This document shows, one piece after another, positions 2,490 to 49,651 of a DNA stretch of 64,000 bases; the stretch's first letter is position 1; the number at the start of each line of letters is the position of its first letter. Made by a program: the position numbers and the translations under genes. The DNA lies in NCBI GenBank assembly GCA_027923505.1, contig BROI01000009.1, positions 248,001 through 312,000 of the forward strand. The letters are read 5' to 3'. The notes under the pieces were generated by a model. It saw nothing but the letters and a program-made list of their open reading frames with translations. It was not told where the DNA came from and searched no databases. Origin of the DNA: Mayamaea pseudoterrestris (Eukaryota).

Positions 2490-4598
<2,109 letters not shown>

Positions 4599-27706: not shown

Positions 27707-29444
27707 TTATCCGAAGTGCGCACTCGGTGAAATCACATCGTCTATCTTTAGGATCATCTTGGTGACTTGCACTGCTAACAAGAGCTGCTCCTTCTTTCCC
27801 ATTAACGTTTCAAATACACCAACCTCGCGCATGTCGCAAATATGAGTTCCATCCGCATTCGCATCCCGATCAACCCCTTGCCCGATAGTCGGAACACCTT
27901 CCTTAAGTTGTTTGGACTTGGCCGCCGCAACTTCATCAATTGGCGACAAGCCAGCATTCTCTGCAAGCGCCATTGGAATATCGTCCAACGCACTGGCAAA
28001 CGCTCGAATCGCATATTGATCAACGCCGGTCACAGTGTCGGCAAACTTACTTACCGCCAAAGAACATGCCGTCTCGGCCGATCCGCCTCCATAAACAATC
28101 CGATTGTCACGAATCAAGTTTCGAACCACGCACATGGCATCGTGCAGAGAGCGCTTGGCTTCATCAACAATCATTTTGGATCCACCCCGCACCAAGACTG
28201 TCACTGCCGTCGTGTTAACAGGATCCTCAATCACCAGCATGGTTTCCTTTCCAAACTGCACTTGCCGCACACACTTGGCATGTCCGAGCTTTCCCGAAGT
28301 AATTTCCTGAAAGCGCGCAACGATGCGGCCGCCAGTGGCCATGGCAATATGCTCCATTTCCACGCCTCCAACCCACCGAACAGCTGCCAAGTCATTCACA
28401 TGCAACAAATGGTTCGCTTCGTCGTCAAATCCCCACTGACAAATGACCAAGTTGGCTCCACTATCCTTGACCTTCTTGACCATGTCGGTAAAGTAGTCTT
28501 GCTCCTGCTGATATAGTCGTTCATACGCTTCGGGACTGGTAATTTCAAGCTTGTGCTTAGTCTTTGGCTTGGGCGGTTCAAATGGACATGTCAGAATGCA
28601 AAGCTTGGCATTTTTTATCTCCTTTGGCATTTGCGGATGCGAAATCTCCTTGTCTATAACAATGCCATGAACAAGCTGGGCATCCTCGAGCGACCCACCG
28701 GTCTTGCCTTCGACGCGAATGCGATCAAAATTGACATCTTTGCGGTCCAAGTCAGCTACACTGAGGACGGCTTGAACGGCAATCTCAGCCATTTTGTCCT
28801 TGTGCGAGCTTCCAATCTTGCTGCTCAGCGTCGTCATGGCTGTGGTTCGCAAGGCGGCGTGATTGTCTGCGTGAATATCCATGGTTTCAGCAATGTCGTC
28901 CAAAGTCTTGAGAGCCACTTGAACTGCTCGTTCGTAACCTTCGGCGATGCGAACCGGAGATATGCCTTTAAGCAATAATCCTTCGGCTTGTTCCAGCAGC
29001 GCTCCAGCCAAAACGACAACTCCGGTGGTTCCGTCGCCAATCTCATCATCCTGCGAAACGGAAAGTTCCACCATGAAGCGAGCGACTGGATGGTCAACCT
29101 GTAGCTGTTGCAGAATGGTCGCTCCATCGTTAGTGATCGTGACGTCTCCATCTGGCGAGACAAGCATCTTGTCCAAACCCTTGGGGCCAAGCGAGCTTCG
29201 CAGCAAGGTGCTGATGGATCGGGCGGCTAAACTGTTGGATCGCGTCGCCTCGAGTCCTTGTAGACGCGTCTTGGCTTGCTGCTCCCGCAATATAATGAAA
29301 GGGCGACCGTATTCATCTGTAGGAGGTTATAATATTAGGTGATCATTAGACTTTTGTAGAAAGTGTGTTACTACTGTACGTGTAACTGGATTCATCAATC
29401 AATGAACGAGCAAAATTCTGATACTTACCATAAACCATCGACAT
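27707..29444 (-). CDS. CCT5: T-complex protein 1 subunit epsilon, 2 exons
   Basis: Exons 29444-29429 and 29316-27707 give [18 protein letters not shown]. Also [34 protein letters not shown] and [13 protein letters not shown]. Confidence 0.95.
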
Positions 29445-38975: not shown

Positions 38976-40441
38976 ATGAGTTCTGGGACTTTACCAAAGC
39001 ACAAATACCACCGAGCGTCTCAGTTGGGCGCTGGATCGTTTGGGAGTGTCGTCGTAGTTTACAATGATGACGGAGAGGAGTATGCTTTGAAACGCTTTAT
39101 GATGGGACCCGACGACGACAGTGACCAAGATGGATCACATAAGTCCACCTGGCCAGTTGACATTGGCGTCCTTAGGGAGTTATCAGCTCTTCGATTACTT
39201 CGAGAAAAGAATGGTCATGTTAATATTACACATCTTGTCGATATTCAAACTGGTTGGGGCAGTGACAGCGATGATTGCGACGACGACGATGCTGGCACGG
39301 ACAAAGAATTAGCTGGTGCTGGAACGAGTGGATGCATATGCATCGCGCTTCCATTATACAAATTTGGATCGCTACAGGATGCCTTGGAAAGAAGATTTTT
39401 TTGTTCCTGCTCACGCAAAGTCAAGGCGACTGTAGTGCATGGACTCCTGTCAGCAGTTGCCTTTGTAAGCCATGCCATTGCTTTCTCTTTTCAAAATGAG
39501 TTTTCGCTCACTTCTATCTATCCCAAAATGAACTGACGCAGCTACATGATAACCGTATAATTCACAGAGACATAAAGCCCAACAACATCATGCTTCAAGA
39601 GGACGACGGGAACGGATGGCGACCGGTGCTCATTGACTTCTCCTTGGCCAAAATTATGCCTATCAATGAACAACCCGACAGCGCACCGATGAAACACACG
39701 GGAGAGGTGGGAACGACTAAATATGTTTCGCCCGAGATTGTTGCGCGAGAGCCTTATGGATTGCCAAGTGACCTTTGGAGTGTCGGCGTTGTTGTGCTGG
39801 AGCTACTCACGGACGACATAATAATTGCTTCCAAAGATCGGCACGCCTTTTCAATGATTCATACAAAACTTGAGCAGCTCGATAACGGCCAACCTTTTCC
39901 TAATCTAATGTATGGACTTCTCCGAACAGATCCGAATGATCGATTAACGGCACGTCAAGCCTTGCAGCATGCACTCTTTGGGGCAAAATTTCACTTGGAA
40001 GTACCACCTGTCCGCGTGATTGACATTGCCGTGGCTCTTCCGCTCCAATTAGCAGTGGACGACAGTAACGACAATAAACACATGCCTATCTACGCTGCTA
40101 GAAAGAAGGATCGTGTATTGAACATTCGTCGGAAACGAATCAACCAGATCTGCTACAACCTTGATGCTACAAGTCCCTCGACGAGTGCTGCAGCATATGA
40201 ATATAGTCGCGTTCTCGAGCAGTTGGATGACACGCTGGACGAATCAGACGCGCAGGGTCTTTTGCATTGTATCGTTCTCGCTCATCGATTCTTCGAAGTA
40301 GAAGTTTTAGATCTGGAGCAACTTGATGAAAATGACCGTGGTGCTTTTGCAAACTGGTCGTTGGACGATTATGTTGACGAGGAAAGTACTCTTTTGATAA
40401 TGCTTGACTATTGTTTGTATGAAAGAGGTTATTACAAGTGA
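38976..40441 (+). CDS. CDK-like Ser/Thr kinase with cyclin-box-like C-terminal domain, 2 exons
   Basis: Exons 38976-39464 and 39542-40441. GAGSFGSV, ALK, VLRELSALRLL, HRDIKPNN, DFS, HTGEVGTTKYVSPE and DLWSVG, followed by a ~105-aa helical C-terminal domain. Confidence 0.8.
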
Positions 40442-40506: not shown

Positions 40507-41226
40507 TTACAAATAGCACAATTGATACAATATCTTTGGCGCATCGTTTGCTTCGTCTTGTTGCTGCTGTTCCTGCTGGAAGTTGTCAATAATTTCAGCC
40601 GCCTCGTTGGTGAAATCGCTGCTTTGCTCCAGTCTCCAGCACAAGTCCAAGGCGACTCGTCCCTTAACGGCTGCTTCGCGAGGATTATCCTTGGTATCCA
40701 AACAAATGACATGAATCGGTTTAAAATCTTGAGTCGGCTCACGCAGCTGCAAGTCTTCAATGACGGCATCGAAGATGCGTTCCTCGAAGGCAATTACAAC
40801 ATCGTGGTGCGCCACTTGCTCTGTTGGCGTATCCTGCCATCGTTGCGGGGCCCGCTTGACGGCCGCCCCGCGCTGGCAAAGCTGCAAAACACCATTGCGC
40901 GAAAAAAAATCCAAGTCTTCTGGAGTTGCTGCGAGACTGGCAAACATTTGTGAATATGGCGTTCCAAACTTGAATAATCGAGGTTCCATGGCCGTCCGTC
41001 CTGGTAAGCGTACCTGCGAACCAGTGCCGTATGATTCCACCGTCAAGCCGGCGTTATTTAATACCAAATGAGCTTCCATGGACCGGTTAATATTCGAGGA
41101 GCAAACGACGCCGAAGGAAAGTCTGGAAGGATGTCTATAAGCCGAGGCTGGCGGCAAACCTGTTGGAGTAGAAGGTCGCGGTAATCGTGGAGGTTTGTAG
41201 TGAGACGATGCTGTAATGCTCGCCAT
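40507..41226 (-). CDS. SSU72: RNA polymerase II CTD phosphatase Ssu72
   Basis: VVCSSNINRSMEAH catalytic CX5R motif; SYGTGSQVRLPG; FGTPY; FEERIFDAVIEDL. Confidence 0.92.
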   Translation of the reverse strand: MASITASSHYKPPRLPRPSTPTGLPPASAYRHPSRLSFGVVCSSNINRSMEAHLVLNNAGLTVESYGTGSQVRLPGRTAMEPRLFKFGTPYSQMFASLAATPEDLDFFSRNGVLQLCQRGAAVKRAPQRWQDTPTEQVAHHDVVIAFEERIFDAVIEDLQLREPTQDFKPIHVICLDTKDNPREAAVKGRVALDLCWRLEQSSDFTNEAAEIIDNFQQEQQQQDEANDAPKILYQLCYL

Positions 41227-41529: not shown

Positions 41530-44500
41530 ATGAACACGAAGATAGCAGAGATTACTGATCGCTCCGCCTGCACGGCTTGGAGCTCCATCGCAAGCCATCC
41601 GGATCTAGTTGTAGTTGCTTCCAAGGTATGTGCAAAGGTGCAGGCTGTCATGAACTGCCATTCGCTCGATCGATTATGTAAAGGACCTGATACAACCATT
41701 ACCTTGATCATTTCTGAACAAATGATACATATTACTCGCAGGATACGGGAGGCAGTGGATTTGACGCGACTGGCGGAACTCTTGAAATTTACGACCTTCA
41801 ACCGTCAGAAACATCACCCGATGAATCACCCAAATTACTCGTCTCCGTCAGGACGACCTCTCGCTTCGCCTGCGTCGACTGGTCGAACTATAACGCGAAT
41901 GGCAAATATCCGCTAGGCCTCATTGTTGCGGGCATGACGGATGGTGCTATTCTGATCTACGATGCCAGCAATCTTTTGCAAGAGGCTGAAGATTCACTTT
42001 TCTTCACCGTTAATGAACTTCAAACACAGAACACGCAAGCTTCTGCTATTAAATCGCATCCCATGCAGCCATATCAAATTGCTGTTGGAACGGTCGATGG
42101 CAGAGTCATTGTCGTTGATGTATCGGAAGCTTCGCTGTCTACCCCGCCGACGGTTGCCGACACTTCCGTGTCAGGCAAGCAGTCGACTGAAATCTCAGCC
42201 GTTGCGTGGAATACACAAGTTGCACACATTCTGGCGAGTAGCAGTAAGGATGGAAGTGTCGTGGTTTGGGATGTTGCGCAAGCTAAACCTTGGTGCCGAA
42301 TGCAGGTCGAGCATGGGCCGTTGGCCGACCTCAGCTGGTCGCCCACACAAGGCTTGTATCTGATGACGGCGAGTGGGGATGACCGACACCCTGTCATTCA
42401 AATTTGGGACCTGGGAGCAAGTACGAGCTTGCCGCTCATGACCTTGGAAGGGCATCGTGCTGGTATACTCAAGGCGAGTTGGTGTCCGCACGACGATGGC
42501 TTTGTTTTGAGTTGCGGCAAGGATCATTCCACATTTCTATGGGATGTGGCTTCAATGCGAGCCATCGCCGAACTGCCACTGGAATCAGAGTTAAGCCCCA
42601 CACACGAAGCTGCCATTATGCAATCGAACCCGACTCCCAACAAACTTTTTGGATCAGGGACTCTTGAGGAGCAGATGCATATGCGCGTGTTTGTCGGATG
42701 GTCGCCCTTAAAGCGAGGCATGGCCATGACCTGCAGCTTAGATCGAAAAGTGCAGTTCCATTCAGTACTCGCGCTAGCAACGACAGCTGGACGCGTACCG
42801 AAGTGGATGAAACCAGCGTCCGTCGTTTCCACCGCATTTGGGGGATCCGTAGTTAGCATTGGAGCCAATTCAAGCAGTGTGCTTATTCAAACTGTGCAAG
42901 AGGAGCCGGAGTTAGTGAAGCTTTCCTCTGCCTTTGATGCAGAGCTTGAACAAGCTGAAAGTATGGTTGACTTTTGTGAAAAGCGGCTAAGAAATGCTCA
43001 TGGATTTGACGCGAAAATGTGGGGTTTTATGAAGGTACTGTTCTCGGAAGATCCGCGCAAACAACTACTTCTGCATCTTGGTTACGACTCTGAGCGTATT
43101 GAAGAGGCTGCCAGCAAATTCATGCCGGAAGAAATTGACTCCACTGGGTATGCAAAAGGCACAGAGTTGATGAGTCCATTTGCGCAAAACCTCATCAAAA
43201 GGGCACTTCTGGTGGGCAACTTCAAGGCAGCCGTAGATTGTTGTTTTCGTGCCAAAAACTACGCCGACGCTCTCGTGGTTGCATCTTGCGGAGGTGCCGA
43301 GCTATGGCAGCAAGCTCAAGATCGCTATTGTGACGAAGTGCAATTGTCACGCCCGTACTTAACTCTGCTAAAGGGCATCGTCAAATCGGAATTGGATGGA
43401 CTGGTGGCTAACTCACATGTCGCCCTGTGGCAAGAAACACTTGCCATTTTATCAACATATGCTAAATCAGATGAATTTCCTCGACTTTGTATTGCTCTTG
43501 GTGAACATGTCGAATGCAAAGGCGATGTGTTAAGCGCATCGCTTTGCTACCTCTGTTCTGGTAGCGTTGAGCATGCTTCACGACACTGGGAAACATTGTT
43601 GGCACAGAGCACTAAAGTTAAACGCGCGATGGGCACTCAAGCGCTACATGAATTCGTCGTTAAGGTTAGCATTTACAGAAAGGTTGCTCCATCGAAAAAG
43701 GAGGTGACTGCGTCGATCGCGAATCACTTCACAGCCTATGCGCAAGCGTTGGCAGACCAAGGCCTTTTTAAAGAAGCGGCGAAGTATGTCAGTGGCGACT
43801 CAGAAGCGAGCATAAAACTTAAGGATCGATTATATCGCAGTCGCAAAACTCAACAATGCTTGACAGAACTTGGTGGTGCTCCTGTTTTCCCATTCAGTAC
43901 GTCTACGCCGGCATCAAGAAGACCGTCTGTTGCTGGTCGTTCTAGCAGAAGGCCGTCTGCGACAGCTGATAGCATGCATTCGAGGGCAAGTCATGGTTCT
44001 CAAGGCTCACTGAGCTCACTCGGGCATTCACAGCGATTGGACATGCGACCAGAAAGTGCGACACCTGTCCCGCCCGCAATGGAGGGGCTGCCTCCAGGAT
44101 GGGTGGCGCTACATGACCCCTCGAGTGGCAATACTTACTTCGCAAATCAGACAACCGGTGAAACATCGTGGGATCGGCCTCAAGCATCCACAGTCTATCA
44201 ACCACAAGTGCCTAATACTCCTATTAACACACAGGTGCCACATCCATATACCGAGTCATCCAAGAAGCAATCAATCGTGTCCAAGTACGGCGACGGCTTC
44301 GTCACGTCAGCATCTCATCCGGAGCTTGCTCACCAGTATGGTAACGTCGGTACTACGAACCCTTACAGTGCTTCACGACCAGGTACGGCAGCGGCCGTTG
44401 TACAGAAGCTGCAGATACAGGCGCCACCCTCGGGGCCTATTGACCTAACGACGGTAGAATTCTCAGCAGAGCAAGCGCAAATTAAGGACACGCTAACATC

Positions 44501-44783
44501 CTTGTACGATCATCTCGTCTCTATCTCGCAACCGGCGGATTCTCGACAGCTTGAAGAAGTCAAGAAAGGGCTGGAAGCTTTGGTGAAAAAACTTGCGCGA
44601 GGATTGATTGACGATGATATCAATTCAAAGTTGTTAGTTATGTGCGAGCAAATTGGAAACTATGATTTTCGAGCCGCTACAGCGACTCAGACAGCCATTG
44701 TCAACAGCGACTGGAGGATACATAAAGAGTGGCTGAAAGGGCTCAAAACCCTACTTCAACTTGCTGTCAAGAGACTTTACTGA
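41530..44783 (+). CDS. SEC31: COPII coat protein Sec31 (WD40 + helical solenoid, with WW domain), 2 exons
   Basis: Exons 41530-41625 and 41742-44783. AVAWNTQVAHILAS, ASGDDRHPVIQIWDL, LSCGKD, PKWMKP...FGG, ALLVGNFKAAV and WQETLAILSTYA, plus the Sec31-like C-terminal helical domain. Confidence 0.88.
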
Positions 44784-44827: not shown

Positions 44828-47800
44828 TTAGGTTTTTTGACTAGCTTTTCTCTTTTTCTCGGGCACCACATCGAAAACTTTTGCTTTCGGCTGTCCGGCC
44901 ATGCCGTCGCTTGACGCCAGACAATTCTCCCAAAGGGACATATCGCGCGCAAATCGACTCTTATCCCACGCGGACCATTCCTTCCAAACTGCTTTTTCTT
45001 CCGCAGAAAGTCCAAGCCATTGCTCCTTCAATCGATTGTGTATTATTTCCTTGTTTTTCCGGTCAGCCGGGCTGAGCGAAGCTTTTACATCCTTGCGACT
45101 TCGGACACAAAAATGGGTGAAGGGTTTCTTCCACTCTATAGGCTTTTCGCTGCCGTCATATGCAGGAAACTCTTTGAATGTCCCAGCAACAATGTAACCT
45201 TTCAGGATCTGGTCGGTATGCGAAAAGCTGTCGCCATTTATAGCCGAGGCTACGCTTTGTTTCGGTACAAGCTCTTCCCGAAGCGGGGACAATCGAGCAA
45301 TGACGGAACCTTCATTAATCGCCTTCAATCGCGCCTGCACTTCACGAATCTGAGACTCGATGTCCGCAACTTTGTCCTCTAACTCTTGCTTCTCTCGCTG
45401 TGCTCTCTCGGCCCTTTCTTTCCGCTGCTGCAAGCGATAAACCCTGAACTTAGGAAGCTGAATGGGCGGCAAAGCTTCTCCGTTGAAAGAATCAGTTGGA
45501 AGGCCAGCACTTTCTCGAGCTTTGCGCTCGATCTGTTCCACTTCTAGCTTAGCTGCTTTGGCTAATTGCTCGCATCTTCGTATAAGTTGGTCGATCGGAA
45601 GGCTGCGAAAGAAGTAATCAAACCGGAACAGTGGGTTGCGTCGAATGGCCATCCGAATCGCTTGCCATTGCCCGTAGCCATACTTTCTCATCCAGCAAAT
45701 TAGATGTCGATCCTCTTCGAAACTGAACATCTTGTCCCTGCAATTAACATATGAAAATTCAAGTTCCTGCCAGGGATTGTCGAAGAGCGACACGAGAACG
45801 CGTATTCCACCTTCAAGCTCGCCGATTTCGCTTATCTTCTTTTCTCCCCGTTCAATCATTTTGACAGCGCGGTCATATTCATGTGCAGAAAAACGGGCTC
45901 GTCCTAGCTCGCCCCAGAAAGCATTGGCGAAGACTTTAACATCCTGTTCCGACTTTCCTACTTCCGCTGCAATTTTCTGATATTCATGGCGACCATAGTG
46001 CGCGCAAGCCTTTACAAATGCATTGAAGTGTGTTCGAAGCCAACCGGAGAAACCTTCGGACAGCAATTTTTCTTTCAAAGTTTGCTTCTCGCTGCTAATC
46101 AATGGAGATAGCTCAAATGCCTGCCCATCGGCCTCCTTCTGCGGAAAACTTTCATGGTCATCAAGCGATTTTTGATGAAGCTTGTCAATGGCTGCCTTTT
46201 GATCCTCCTCTGGAAGAGCCTTGAAAGCAGCCTCCTCTTCCTCTTGTATCTTCAGCAGAGACTCGCGATCATACATCTGCCACTCCTCCATTCTCGGTAA
46301 ACGAAGGTGTTTGGGAAGTCGGAAAACTTTCTTCTTAGACTTCTTAGCTGTACAAGTACCAGAACTTGCCATCTGCTGCTGGTACAAAGAATTTTCATTG
46401 TAATTTGCTTCCTTTCGCTCGCGCTTACCAATGTCAAATATATTGAGCATGTCAGCTTCCGCCCTAGCGTGCGCAATGGCGTTCGCTGAATAGTCGACAC
46501 CTTCGAAGGTCTGCACCGATGAACCATCCAATTTAAAATCAAGCAGGTCCCCCTTGTCTGCGGCCTGTAGCTTGTCATTGAGCTCCTGCGTCTTTCGTTT
46601 GCCCGCGTCTAGGATAAGATCAATATCGTCGTCAGTAATGGACGAGTCCTTGCTTTTGAAAATTTTGTCGGCTCCAAAGCGCACAGCGGCAAGTAGCTCG
46701 TCTCGCGACAGCTTGTCTTTGTCCTTCAGACGACCTTGCTGGACCACCATGGCGTCGAGCTTTAGTTTCTGCTGTGCCCTTTCAACAATTTTCTCCTCGA
46801 TCGTGTGTTCGGTAACAAGGCGGAAAACTTGGACGCTACGTTTTTGGCCGATGCGATGACTGGACGTAAAAGAAGCCAAATTGTGAGTTGTGATTAAAAT
46901 TGACGTCGTTCTCTATTGTCATTCCAATTGATACATACGCGCGATCTTGACTGTGAAATAAAAGCGCATAACGCGATTGTAGGGTGTGAGTGTGAATAGC
47001 AACAGTATAACAAGTTCACACACGCATGATGGCGTACGCTTGCAAGTCGGCCTGAGGGTTCCAATCCGAATCGTAAAGGATGACTATGTCCGCCGTTTGA
47101 AGGCTACCGAAATCAATCAATTGAGTGAGGCGGCAACTTGAGGTGCACAAGTTCGATCAGCTCGATGCTCACTTACTTAATCCCAAGACCGCCAGCGCGG
47201 GTACTGAGCAAGAATATGAATTTCTCCGATCCTGGCTCGTTATAGGTGTCAATATACTTCTCCCGGTCGTCATAGGATGTATTTCCATCGATGCGGCAAT
47301 ATTGGTATCGGCGCATAACGAGATAATCCTCAAGTATATCCAAGATTTTCGTCATCTGCGTAAACAAAAGCACTCTGTGTCCTTGCTCAAACAGGCGCTT
47401 CAAAAGCTTATCGAGTAATGCCATTTTTCCACAGTTATATATGAGGTGATCCCCTAGCGGAGGAAGGCTACGATCTTCTACCCCTGGAAAGAGGTAAGGG
47501 TGACCAGCACACTTTCGTAGCTGCATAACAATATTCAAGATAGCTGTTCGATTGCCTGATGTCCCCTGAAAGGCGTCGATGTCGCGAGCGAGAATATTGC
47601 GATAAAGATCTTTCTGCATTTTGCTCATTCCGGTAAAAAGAATTGTCTCATGCTGCAACAAAAGATGGGTATTGTCAGGGAACGTTCCGATCAAGGCGCC
47701 AAACGCTGCTGACGGCACACCCCAGTCATACCTTGGGTGGGAGCGATTTTTCAACGTCAGCCTTTAATCGACGTAGCATAAAAGGTCGCAGGATCTTATG

Positions 47801-49651
47801 AAGCTGTGATATTAACTTGTTTTTCTCATTGTTGTCATCAATGTCCAAGTTGAACCACTGGTCGAACTGCTCCGCCGACTCAAATACATCAGGCACCTGC
47901 AACGGAGAAAAGCGACATTGAGAGAGGAAAAGGGCATTATTATGGAAGGATCAGTCGGTACGACTCACAAGAAAGTTGAGCAGTGCCCAAAGCTCCAAAA
48001 GAGAGTTTTGGAGCGGGGTCCCTGTGAGAAGAAGGCGGTAACGAGTTTCGAACGTCCGAACCGTCTGAGAAAAGGTTGAAGCATCGTTTTTTAGTCGATG
48101 GGCCTGGGTGATAAGAAGTAGTACATTTGTAAGTACCGAATCCGAATATATTTACATAAACCTTCGCCCTACATAATCGCACCTCGTCGATGATCAAGTA
48201 GCTCCAGGTGAACCTGCCCAACGTAGCACGTTCCATATTGCAAACCTCGTAGGTAGTGACAATGACATTCCAAGTCCGCTCCTCGTCGCGCATTGCCGGC
48301 TCAAGTTCATTCTTGATAATCGATTCCCTCGTCTCCCGATCACCATGGAATCGAATCGCCTTTAAAGTAGGAGCCCATCGAGCAAACTCATTCATCCATT
48401 GGCTAAGTGTGGATTTTGGCACGCATACAATATGCGGACCAGTGACCCCTCGGTACTCGTTCATGTAGACAAGAACCGAAATTGACTGGAGTGTCTTTCC
48501 TAGTCCCTACGACGTCCGCATAGAGCCCGTTCATGTTGGGTGAGTCGCCATATGCACAAGCCTAGCACATACTCTACTAATTGCTTATCTTACCATCTCG
48601 TCGGCAAGAATACCATTGACTCCATTCTCTTGTAATCGAATCATCCAGTTCAAGCCTTCTAATCTGTTGAGCGAAAAGCGTCGCGTGAGTGATGTTAAGA
48701 GCTGTATTATCATTTTTATAAGAGCCAAACTTACTGATAGTCTCTCATTTGACCATGACCAATCGTACTAGGTTGTTTGGTGAGGAAGATAGCCTCATGT
48801 TCGTCGGCTTCCTCTAACGCATCGAGTTCCTCCTCCACGCTAGACTTGGCCAAATCCCGTCGGGACGACGCTCCTGTGCCGTTCTGGCTTTTGTCCATGG
48901 TGGCACTCGCAACACCCGATTTGGTACCATACTTGAGAGCGTCTTGCTTGATGCGTCCAAAGTGTGAAAAAATGTTGGACTGTTTGAGCAGATATTCAAG
49001 CCGGCGATTGGCTTGCTCGGCTCGTTCCTTGCGCAAATCTTCCTGTCGAGCTGTTATATACTGCTCCTTCTTGACCTTCGCGACCTTCTTTGCAGCAAGA
49101 TGCTCTTGTTGCTTTTGCGATATTTGTCGCGGAACCTTTTTCGGCCTTGCTTGAGAATTGGACGATTGTGATGCTGACGACTCGTCGCTTGCTGCATCCT
49201 TATTCAGTTCCTCCTTCTTGTGCTTATTCTTTCGTTTTTTCTCAAGCTTGCGGCGAGTCGTTCGAACGCCGTCCATAAGAATGTCTTCTGGGCTTTCAAC
49301 AAACAGTTGATCTCGCTCCTGTCTAAGTTTTTCGGCGCGCTCCAATGCTTGCAAGTCGGCTCTGCTCGACTCCTGCTCAAATCGGGCAGAGTCACGCTGA
49401 GCCATCTCCGTAAATGGTTGCTTTTCGTCAGCTGACATTCCGTTCCAACGTTCTCGTACATTTCTTCCGAATACCGCAATATCGAACTTTCCCGTCTCAC
49501 GGATCACTTGTTCCTTGACTTCTGCAGTGACGGCTGCCTGGAAAAAGCTGTAGGCGGACTGTGCCTTGCGAATGGTTGTGGATTCTACATTAGAGAACTC
49601 GGGCTCAACGGCCACCCAGTCGGATCGATTCTCCTTCTTCTTGGAGGTCAT
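44828..49651 (-). CDS. ISWI: ISWI-family SNF2 chromatin-remodelling ATPase with N- and C-terminal HMG boxes, 9 exons
   Basis: Exons 49651-48735, 48663-48594, 48506-48183, 48103-47969, 47896-47732, 47652-47177, 47103-47038, 46950-46939 and 46859-44828. Motifs [31 protein letters not shown] and QAQDRAHRIGQ; SANT and SLIDE segments are recognisable. Confidence 0.9.

Follow-up and report, generated by a model that had tools for sequence, protein, structure and literature searches.

A CDK-like kinase of the diatom Mayamaea pseudoterrestris with a putative diverged cyclin box at its own C-terminus

Can a diatom kinase carry a cyclin box of its own, in the same chain, and be activated by it? The question is raised by a gene at positions 38976 to 40441 (+ strand) of a 64,000-nucleotide stretch of Mayamaea pseudoterrestris DNA (GenBank assembly GCA_027923505.1, contig BROI01000009.1, positions 248,001 to 312,000 of the forward strand), which we refer to as the window. 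An earlier note made from the letters alone had proposed that this gene encodes a kinase resembling the cyclin-dependent kinases (CDKs) joined to a degenerate cyclin box, and that the box might activate the kinase in cis. In the analysis reported here, the fusion of the kinase to its C-terminal domain is conserved across diatoms, the kinase looks active, and the domain is concluded from its modelled fold to be a diverged cyclin box. Our preferred reading, to which we give a probability of about 0.55, is that of a diatom-wide, active CDK-like kinase with one diverged C-terminal cyclin box that would act in cis, the enzyme being regulated through its T-loop. Docking in cis, activation and T-loop regulation are the parts of this reading that we infer.

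The gene is nuclear and its product is a protein of 462 residues encoded by two exons:

38976 to 39464, + strand: exon 1, residues 1-163, with an MSSGxLP N-terminus, GAGSFGSV, Lys39, an acidic insert, alphaC, a second acidic insert and the stretch from beta5 to alphaE; read from the sequence, with Pfam Pkinase matching exon 1 alone at E 2.6e-5.
39465 to 39541, + strand: intron of 77 nucleotides, GT..AG; read from the sequence, the splice giving the database protein P0003 and the intron being skipped exactly in a contig of run X3.
39542 to 40441, + strand: exon 2, residues 164-462 (299 residues) and the stop codon, with the catalytic loop, DFS, T-loop, C-lobe, linker and putative cyclin box; read from the sequence.

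A straight reading of 38976-40441 meets stop codons, a point on which the earlier note was silent, and the 77-nucleotide intron must therefore be spliced out. The spliced product is 100% identical over 462 residues to P0003, which bears the NCBI name 'P-TEFb-associated cyclin-dependent protein kinase Cdk9 [Mayamaea pseudoterrestris]'. Translation of the exons recovered all the strings that had been quoted from this gene, each in its expected place; exon 1 holds GSFGSV, DIGVLRELSALRLL and the acidic inserts, and exon 2 holds HRDIKPNN, DFS, HTGEVGT, DPNDRLTARQALQH and the C-terminal series RRKRINQICYNL...LLHCIVLAHRFFE...EESTLLIMLDYCLY. Matching contigs come from four sequencing runs, of unrecorded kind and all from one study. 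One contig of run X3 joins 39464 exactly to 39542, and further X3 contigs end at 39464 or begin at 39542. The contigs of runs X1 and X2 show coding differences from the window at 39838, 39861 and 39908, with X2 differing also at 39879-39880, and X3 agrees with the window; these differences in the kinase C-lobe are likely to be allelic or strain variants. The C-lobe of the kinase, the linker and the cyclin-like domain are all read from exon 2 without an intervening stop, and because the three share a single exon their union in one polypeptide is not in doubt. The same full length is found in open reading frames (ORFs) labelled 'type:complete' in the transcriptomes of other diatoms.

The distribution of the C-terminal domain was followed with a piece of 138 residues (40025-40438). 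Among 1.84 billion proteins, 64 cluster representatives match this piece at E<=1e-3, and for 52 the match reaches E<=1e-10; with 64 conserved matches the domain is more than chance. The match ends no more than 20 residues from the C-terminus in 63 of the 64. When 65 proteins were scanned, Pkinase lay upstream of the domain in 42, the remaining 23 being fragments of at most 263 residues; all 23 proteins of at least 426 residues have Pkinase followed by the domain. The best 120 matches to the family profile (E<=3.7e-170) cover 87-100% of the query, and none of them has a precomputed Cyclin_N assignment. Every named member is a diatom, from one of 11 genera (Mayamaea, Fistulifera, Seminavis, Cylindrotheca, Nitzschia, Amphora, Fragilaria, Synedropsis, Gedaniella, Attheya and Ditylum) that we take to represent pennate and mediophyte centric diatoms, and the database names of members range over 'Cdk9', 'SPS1-related kinase', 'protein tyrosine kinase' and 'hypothetical'. 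A survey of diatom orthologues, which had been suggested as a check, thus found the kinase joined to the C-terminal domain throughout the family, and the fusion is conserved across diatoms. The residue counts given below come from an alignment of 104 full-length family members.

What, then, is the C-terminal domain? The element in question is the following:

40088 to 40426, + strand: putative single cyclin-box fold, residues 346-458; assigned from the model, structural matches, Pfam matches in relatives and column counts.

An AlphaFold2 model of the 138-residue piece, built from an 18-sequence alignment of natural fragments, has a predicted local distance difference test (pLDDT) score of 79.5 and a predicted template modelling (pTM) score of 0.71, and contains five helices (346-369, 375-388, 401-414, 421-425 and 437-450). 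In a VIA-align search of 48,161 chains, the top matches of this model fall on the N-terminal cyclin boxes of cyclins A, B and D3 and of K-cyclin (Z score, then root-mean-square deviation (rmsd) / residues aligned):

9qcv_L (CAK-CDK2-cyclin A2 entry), residues 201-307: Z 11.3, 2.6 A / 100.
Cyclin B1: Z 11.2, 2.8 A / 100.
Cyclin A (7luo_C): Z 11.2, 2.3 A / 98.
Cyclin D3: Z 11.1, 4.6 A / 108.
K-cyclin: Z 10.9, 2.6 A / 98.

On our reading of their titles, the first 44 rows include 43 that are cyclins, TFIIB/Brf, the Rb pocket, Orc6 or p25, and unrelated folds appear from about Z 5.5. Foldseek also returned mostly TFIIB/Brf and cyclins for the domain model, with probabilities of 0.97 for Brf1 and 0.87 for K-cyclin. 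At the level of sequence, Pfam Cyclin_N is the commonest non-kinase family in the 104 relatives, being found in 15 of them at E<=1, with nine for the next family. The strongest of these matches, in relative P0140, lies at the curated cut-off (23.0 bits, E 6.8e-5, residues 324-426 on profile positions 15-114); relative P0139 scores 21.3 bits over profile positions 8-126 of 127, and P0026, P0041 and P0043 match Cyclin_N in the same register. Helix 3 of P0140 and P0043 contains LLASK, in which ASK fits the core of the IASK.EE pattern quoted for cyclin boxes in the earlier note. The ESM features of the 138-residue piece, which serve as a lead only, place Cyclin_N clusters at ranks 2, 3 and 29 with scores of 0.82-0.86. 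Within the domain Arg359, Glu415 and Glu444 are invariant (104/104), and residue 412 is basic in 101 members (Arg in 51, Lys in 50).

Several results count against the domain being a cyclin box. The domain of P0003 has no Pfam match up to E<=10, falling short of the 23-bit cut-off of Cyclin_N (PF00134). Foldseek gave no row at E<=1e-3 for the domain model, and the two rows that head its list belong to Brf1 and not to cyclins. Searched against the PDB, the single domain sequence had no match, the 18-sequence domain profile found no cyclin (best match Rab GDI, E 0.049), and neither did the Cyclin_N-positive P0140 (best match a DPS protein, E 1.4). Canonical cyclins have two boxes and the diatom protein only one; a second box is absent, the chain ending 4 residues after Arg458 and the tail being 1-18 residues long (median 5) in the 104 members. 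These results raise the possibility that the domain is unrelated to cyclins, a convergent five-helix bundle with chance matches to Pfam. Such convergence would fit the lack of a significant sequence match for the P0003 domain, the failure of the domain to align with a viral cyclin box (given below), and VIA-align's own note that helical bundles may reach about Z 13 through a common arrangement, so that Z 11 is attainable from arrangement alone. It would leave unexplained that 43 of the first 44 structural matches belong to one fold class, the best of them being true cyclin N-boxes at an rmsd of 2.3-2.8 A, that Cyclin_N recurs in 15 of the 104 relatives in one register and once at the curated cut-off, that no other non-kinase Pfam family is found in more than nine members, and that LLASK stands in helix 3 of two relatives; we consider convergence very improbable. 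We conclude that the C-terminal domain, as modelled, is a diverged cyclin box, filed as a fold and not as a member of Pfam Cyclin_N. The proposal of a degenerate cyclin box in the same chain as the kinase is therefore borne out by the five-helix model, by the cyclin N-boxes that head the structural matches (Z 10.9-11.3) and by Cyclin_N in 15 of 104 relatives. The Pfam, AlphaFold and Foldseek checks proposed with it gave a mixed outcome, in that a cyclin-class fold was found but Pfam had no match in P0003 and Foldseek none at E<=1e-3.

The kinase part of the protein has the following features:

39006 to 39979, + strand: protein kinase domain, residues 11-309, split by the intron; Pfam PF00069 Pkinase, E 7.7e-41, profile positions 1-263 of 263.
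39099 to 39155, + strand: acidic insert of variable length between Lys39 of beta3 and alphaC, residues 42-60, disordered in the model (pLDDT <50 for residues 46-57).
39162 to 39203, + strand: alphaC helix IGVLRELSALRLLR, residues 63-76, at the PSTAIRE position; modelled helix 63-74 and column counts.
39563 to 39586, + strand: catalytic loop HRDIKPNN, residues 171-178; His171, Asp173, Lys175 and Asn178 invariant (104/104).
39635 to 39736, + strand: activation segment from DFS (residues 195-197, 104/104) to SPE (226-228); sequence and column counts.
39698 to 39700, + strand: T-loop Thr216, invariant; placed by alignment with the T-loop Thr of PfPK5.

The residues Lys39, Glu68, His171, Asp173, Lys175, Asn178, Asp195, Phe196, Ser197, Thr216, Pro227, Glu228, Asp240 and Arg297 are invariant in all 104 members. 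This set includes the beta3 Lys, the alphaC Glu, the HRD Asp, the catalytic Asn, the DFG Asp and the APE Glu that mark active kinases, and because these catalytic residues are invariant the enzyme looks active, judged by its sequence as a catalytically competent Ser/Thr kinase. The replacement of DFG by DFS that had been pointed out in this gene is present, and with Ser at the Gly position in 104 of 104 members it is a signature of the family. The glycine-rich loop carries either Thr-Tyr or Ser-Phe; the residue equivalent to Tyr15 is Tyr in 64 members, Phe in 38 and His in 1, and the residue before it is Thr in 59. The Phe that the earlier note saw in GSFGSV is thus correct for this protein but is not a trait of the family, and the escape from Wee1-type Tyr phosphorylation that had been suggested on that ground fails as a family trait. 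The N-lobe carries two acidic inserts, both disordered in the full-length model; the span from Lys39 to Gly64 varies from 12 to 64 residues over the family and is about 59% Asp/Glu. Between the inserts the alphaC helix follows the family pattern G-A-L-R-E-I-S-x-L-R-L-L-R with almost all positions conserved (Glu68, Leu72 and Arg73 invariant, Arg67 in 98/104, Ser70 in 103/104, Arg76 in 102/104), and such near-complete conservation is as expected for a buried protein-protein interface.

The extreme N-terminus of the kinase (P0003 residues 1-13, 38976-39014) is also conserved in the family, as M-S-S-G-x-L-P...Y-H-R. Leu6, Pro7, Tyr11, His12 and Arg13 are each found in at least 90% of the 104 sequences, which is unusual at the N-terminus of a kinase.

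How much of a CDK the kinase is proved harder to settle. In HMMER alignments Thr216 falls on the T-loop Thr of Plasmodium PfPK5 and Lys200 on the Arg after the PfPK5 DFG, and candidate readers of a T-loop phosphate are Arg67, Arg172 (103/104) and Lys200. Exon 1 alone has PfPK5 as its sole match in the PDB (E 0.009), and a phmmer search with P0003 places PfPK5 first (74 bits), followed by CASK/CaMK (69-65 bits). With the family profile, the best-scoring stretch lies in the N-lobe half for the CDK6 and Cryptosporidium CDK matches, and in the C-lobe for most PAK and CaMK1 matches. Against membership among the CDKs stands the lack of the insert of the CMGC kinases, which sits between alphaG and alphaH. 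It is absent from all 104 members, the distance from the APE Glu to Arg297 being 67-78 residues (median 69); HMMER has to interrupt its alignment with PfPK5, of which about 21 residues (238-258) find no partner. Residue 225, which we take to be the site of the CMGC arginine in the P+1 loop, is Val in P0003, and over the family it is Thr in 45, Arg in 34, Met in 8 and another residue in 17 of 104. Unfavourable to the CDK assignment are also the family profile scores, where a Plasmodium CDPK (122.7 bits) exceeds PfPK5 (109.3) and CDK6 (105.8), and a Foldseek search with the full-length model, where CDPK, DAPK and CaMKII come first and Thr160-phosphorylated CDK2-cyclin A appears at rank 28. The HMMER pairwise alignment with PfPK5, moreover, shifts the PSTAIRE region by about 6-7 residues from the assignment of alphaC that we share with the earlier note, which was kept because Glu68 is invariant and a helix is modelled at 63-74. 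The 'CDK' label is therefore only partly upheld: the T-loop Thr matches and exon 1 finds PfPK5, but the CMGC insert is missing and CDPK/CAMK kinases score equally. The kinase is CDK-like, and only partly so, and not a canonical CMGC member.

Since the kinase is as close to CDPK/CAMK as to CDK, a CAMK-style C-terminal domain, possibly autoinhibitory, is a live alternative to our preferred reading, and it too weighs on the debit side. The C-terminal parts of CDPK, DAPK and CaMKII regulate their kinase. By analogy, the domain of the diatom protein could be an autoinhibitory or switchable module that is released by a signal or by phosphorylation, as might be expected from the CDPKs, DAPKs and CaMKII that lead the full-length structure and profile matches and from the conserved linker, which is modelled as packed onto the kinase. 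The fold of the domain is nevertheless that of a cyclin box and not of an EF-hand or a pseudosubstrate helix, its conserved residues are those that cyclins use for kinase activation, and the CDK2 matches in Foldseek are entries of the Thr160-phosphorylated CDK2-cyclin A complex. On this evidence we regard an autoinhibitory role as quite unlikely.

If the domain is a cyclin box that activates, the question becomes which kinase it acts on. The two domains are connected as follows:

39980 to 40087, + strand: linker, residues 310-345, the first 20 residues conserved as KF..E.PP...ID...ALP and the rest of variable length; assigned from the model and counts.

In the full-length model (pLDDT 82.8, pTM 0.86) the pLDDT along the linker is 95-96 for residues 301-320, 89 for 321-330 and 57 for 331-340; in the 104 members the span from Phe309 to Arg359 is 34-106 residues. 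By our own estimate an unplaced domain of 113 residues would hold the pTM near 0.6, so that a pTM of 0.86 indicates that the model holds the two domains in a set arrangement. The model was built from a 23-sequence family alignment, and the domain placement was read from the pTM, not from coordinates or the predicted aligned error. Residue 412 and Glu444 lie no more than about 2 residues away from Lys266 and Glu295 of cyclin A2, as taken from the aligned ranges (model 24-131 on 9qcv_L 201-307) and not from a residue-by-residue alignment. In the available part of one structural account, the Lys266/Glu295 pair is described as hydrogen-bonding the loop before the PSTAIRE helix and as conserved in all solved CDK-cyclin pairs (PMC3590450). 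It is suggestive that residue 412 and Glu444 of the model may be the counterpart of this pair. An ESMFold2 complex of kinase residues 1-320 with residues 340-462, predicted without family alignments, gave a median score of 0.12 against a mark of 0.34, which speaks neither for binding nor against it. Mutual information with average product correction over the 104 sequences (effective number 86) places 4 of the top 30 inter-domain pairs on residues 58-76, which comprise alphaC and its preceding loop; this number does not clearly exceed what is expected, and relatedness confounds it.

In an alternative reading the cyclin box is real but acts in trans, by docking substrates or as a scaffold, as the cyclin of another CDK, or by mutual activation within a dimer, the kinase being active alone. 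CAMK/CDPK kinases, which work without a cyclin, are what the C-lobe and the overall model look like, a linker of 34-106 residues can reach a second molecule, and the cyclin folds of TFIIB, Brf, Rb and Orc6, which share the list of structural matches, have jobs other than activating a kinase. The pTM of 0.86 speaks instead for a fixed intramolecular arrangement, both the Lys/Glu-type pair and nearly all of alphaC are conserved, and among the 64 matches in 1.84 billion representatives the domain is confined to short fragments and to the C-terminal end of this kinase family. We therefore hold action in trans to be rather unlikely, and return to the preferred reading, in which the box serves its own kinase. 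The most likely mechanism would have the conserved linker follow the kinase surface and set the cyclin box on the enzyme's own N-lobe and alphaC helix, where the basic residue 412 and Glu444 would act as the cyclin Lys/Glu pair and grip the loop that precedes the PSTAIRE helix. In that state the kinase would be permanently 'cyclin-bound', and control would shift to phosphorylation of Thr216, the phosphate being read by Arg67, Arg172 and Lys200, and to the amount of protein that is made or degraded. Activation of the kinase in cis by the cyclin box is plausible from the models, at roughly even odds. A more far-reaching version would be that diatoms carry a live single-chain kinase-cyclin module in which a cryptic box clamps alphaC, no separate cyclin is needed and T-loop phosphorylation and the level of protein are the sole means of control; among photosynthetic eukaryotes such an enzyme would be the first active CDK-cyclin fusion of natural origin, and it may share an origin with the giant-virus fusions described below. 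We offer that version tentatively, and with more doubt than belief.

No cyclin gene was found among the 38 ORFs scanned in the window. Converging on the kinase gene, with the two stop codons about 65 bp apart, is a gene at 40507-41226 (- strand) for an Ssu72-type phosphatase of the C-terminal domain of RNA polymerase II (Pfam Ssu72, E 3e-60); its position next to a kinase named Cdk9 by NCBI is probably a coincidence. Further genes in the window include two TCP-1/cpn60 chaperonins at 2490-4595 (+ strand, E 1.1e-62) and 27710-29326 (- strand, E 1.6e-163), and an ISWI-like chromatin remodeller with SNF2, Helicase_C and SLIDE domains at 44831-48506 (- strand), which is spread over several ORFs and presumably split by introns. 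At 41934-44783 (+ strand) a protein of 949 residues combines WD40 repeats, a Sec16/Sec31-type tetratricopeptide repeat region and a WW domain, and is a Sec31-like COPII component with an extra WW.

If a conserved kinase brings along a cyclin box of its own, it would form a switch in the cell cycle or in signalling that is wired unlike the textbook two-subunit CDK, and it would be found in a lineage for which a cyclin repertoire of unusual size as well as several 'hypothetical CDKs' are described in the available part of the account of diatom cell-cycle genes (PMC2872877). Its catalytically intact look, set against the oomycete fusions that are predicted to be dead, would make it a natural test of a permanently cyclin-bound kinase. 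There is also a lesson for annotation, the domain being invisible to Pfam in 103 of the 104 members. A statement of 2010, in a source available in part, holds that diatoms lack kinase-cyclin fusions; it may need revision, because the domain escapes Pfam and members are named as plain kinases. In a literature search, no published diatom kinase-cyclin fusion was found, and natural fusions were found only in the Phytophthora kinome paper. The diatom protein is apparently, from its sequence, a cryptic and active variant of the kinase-cyclin fusion, a general kind already published in oomycetes and ciliates.

The closest natural parallels in architecture come from a giant virus and from oomycetes. 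A giant-virus record in IMG/VR (G001, a 303-kb contig) contains two ORFs for kinase-cyclin fusions:

697 to 1890, + strand of G001: viral ORF L006, 397 residues, Cyclin_N 37.3 bits.
1318 to 2772, - strand of G001: viral ORF L007, 484 residues, Cyclin_N 17.8 bits.

Like the diatom family, both place one short cyclin box after the kinase, and L006 shares the compact C-lobe, its kinase match ending at residue 247 of 397. The viral kinases have HGD and DFG, whereas the diatom family has HRD and DFS. When the family was compared with L006 by hhalign only the kinases aligned (98.9%, 24% identity), and an alignment of the domain with L006, which itself passes Cyclin_N, left the boxes unaligned (probability 0.4%), which tells against a cyclin origin of the diatom domain. 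By ESM features, taken as a lead only, P0003 is nearest to kinase clusters of Nucleocytoviricota (0.97-0.99). When IMG/VR was scanned for the family pattern, 5 loci came up, all of them kinases and none with Cyclin_N or the diatom C-terminal domain.

A single cyclin-box fold suffices to activate a CDK, as the CDK5 activator p25/p35 does. In our structural matches p25 (3o0g_D) is present at Z 6.9, below cyclins A, B and D, and differs from the diatom domain in being a separate polypeptide. In an engineered Cdc13-Cdc2 fusion of fission yeast, the cyclin is said to precede the CDK. The available portion of the paper on that fusion indicates that a covalent cyclin-CDK can work (PMC4319789); the construct is artificial and has a full cyclin, whereas the diatom protein is natural. 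Among diatoms, the accessible text on the Phaeodactylum 'hypothetical CDKs' hCDK1-7 describes divergent cyclin-binding motifs, a position outside the CDK tree and cell-cycle regulation of several of them (Huysman et al. 2010, PMC2872877). These are diatom kinases, as are the members of the present family, and that text mentions no cyclin box for them.

In the part of the Phytophthora kinome paper available to us, four CDKs of Phytophthora infestans are reported with C-terminal Cyclin_N and Cyclin_C, for example PITG_21617, with relatives in ciliates and Theileria (Judelson & Ah-Fong 2010, PMC3019232). The same part states that all of the oomycete fusions have Asp changed to Asn in subdomain VIb and are judged probably inactive, and the authors also raise self-activation for them (PMC3019232). 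On that account, oomycete and diatom proteins, both from stramenopiles, have in common the order of kinase then cyclin domain in one chain. They differ in that the oomycete fusions have strong Cyclin_N and Cyclin_C, that is two boxes, and the diatom protein has one box that Pfam misses; and the Asp that is replaced by Asn in oomycete subdomain VIb corresponds to Asp173, invariant in the diatom family, this comparison being by description and not by sequence. With CDK2-cyclin A and PfPK5 the diatom kinase shares the T-loop Thr, the basic residues Arg67, Arg172 and Lys200, the Thr-Tyr of the glycine-rich loop in most members, and the fold of the cyclin N-box. From canonical CDK-cyclin pairs it is set apart by its single chain, the missing CMGC insert and second box, a DFS motif instead of DFG, and a pair of acidic inserts in its N-lobe.

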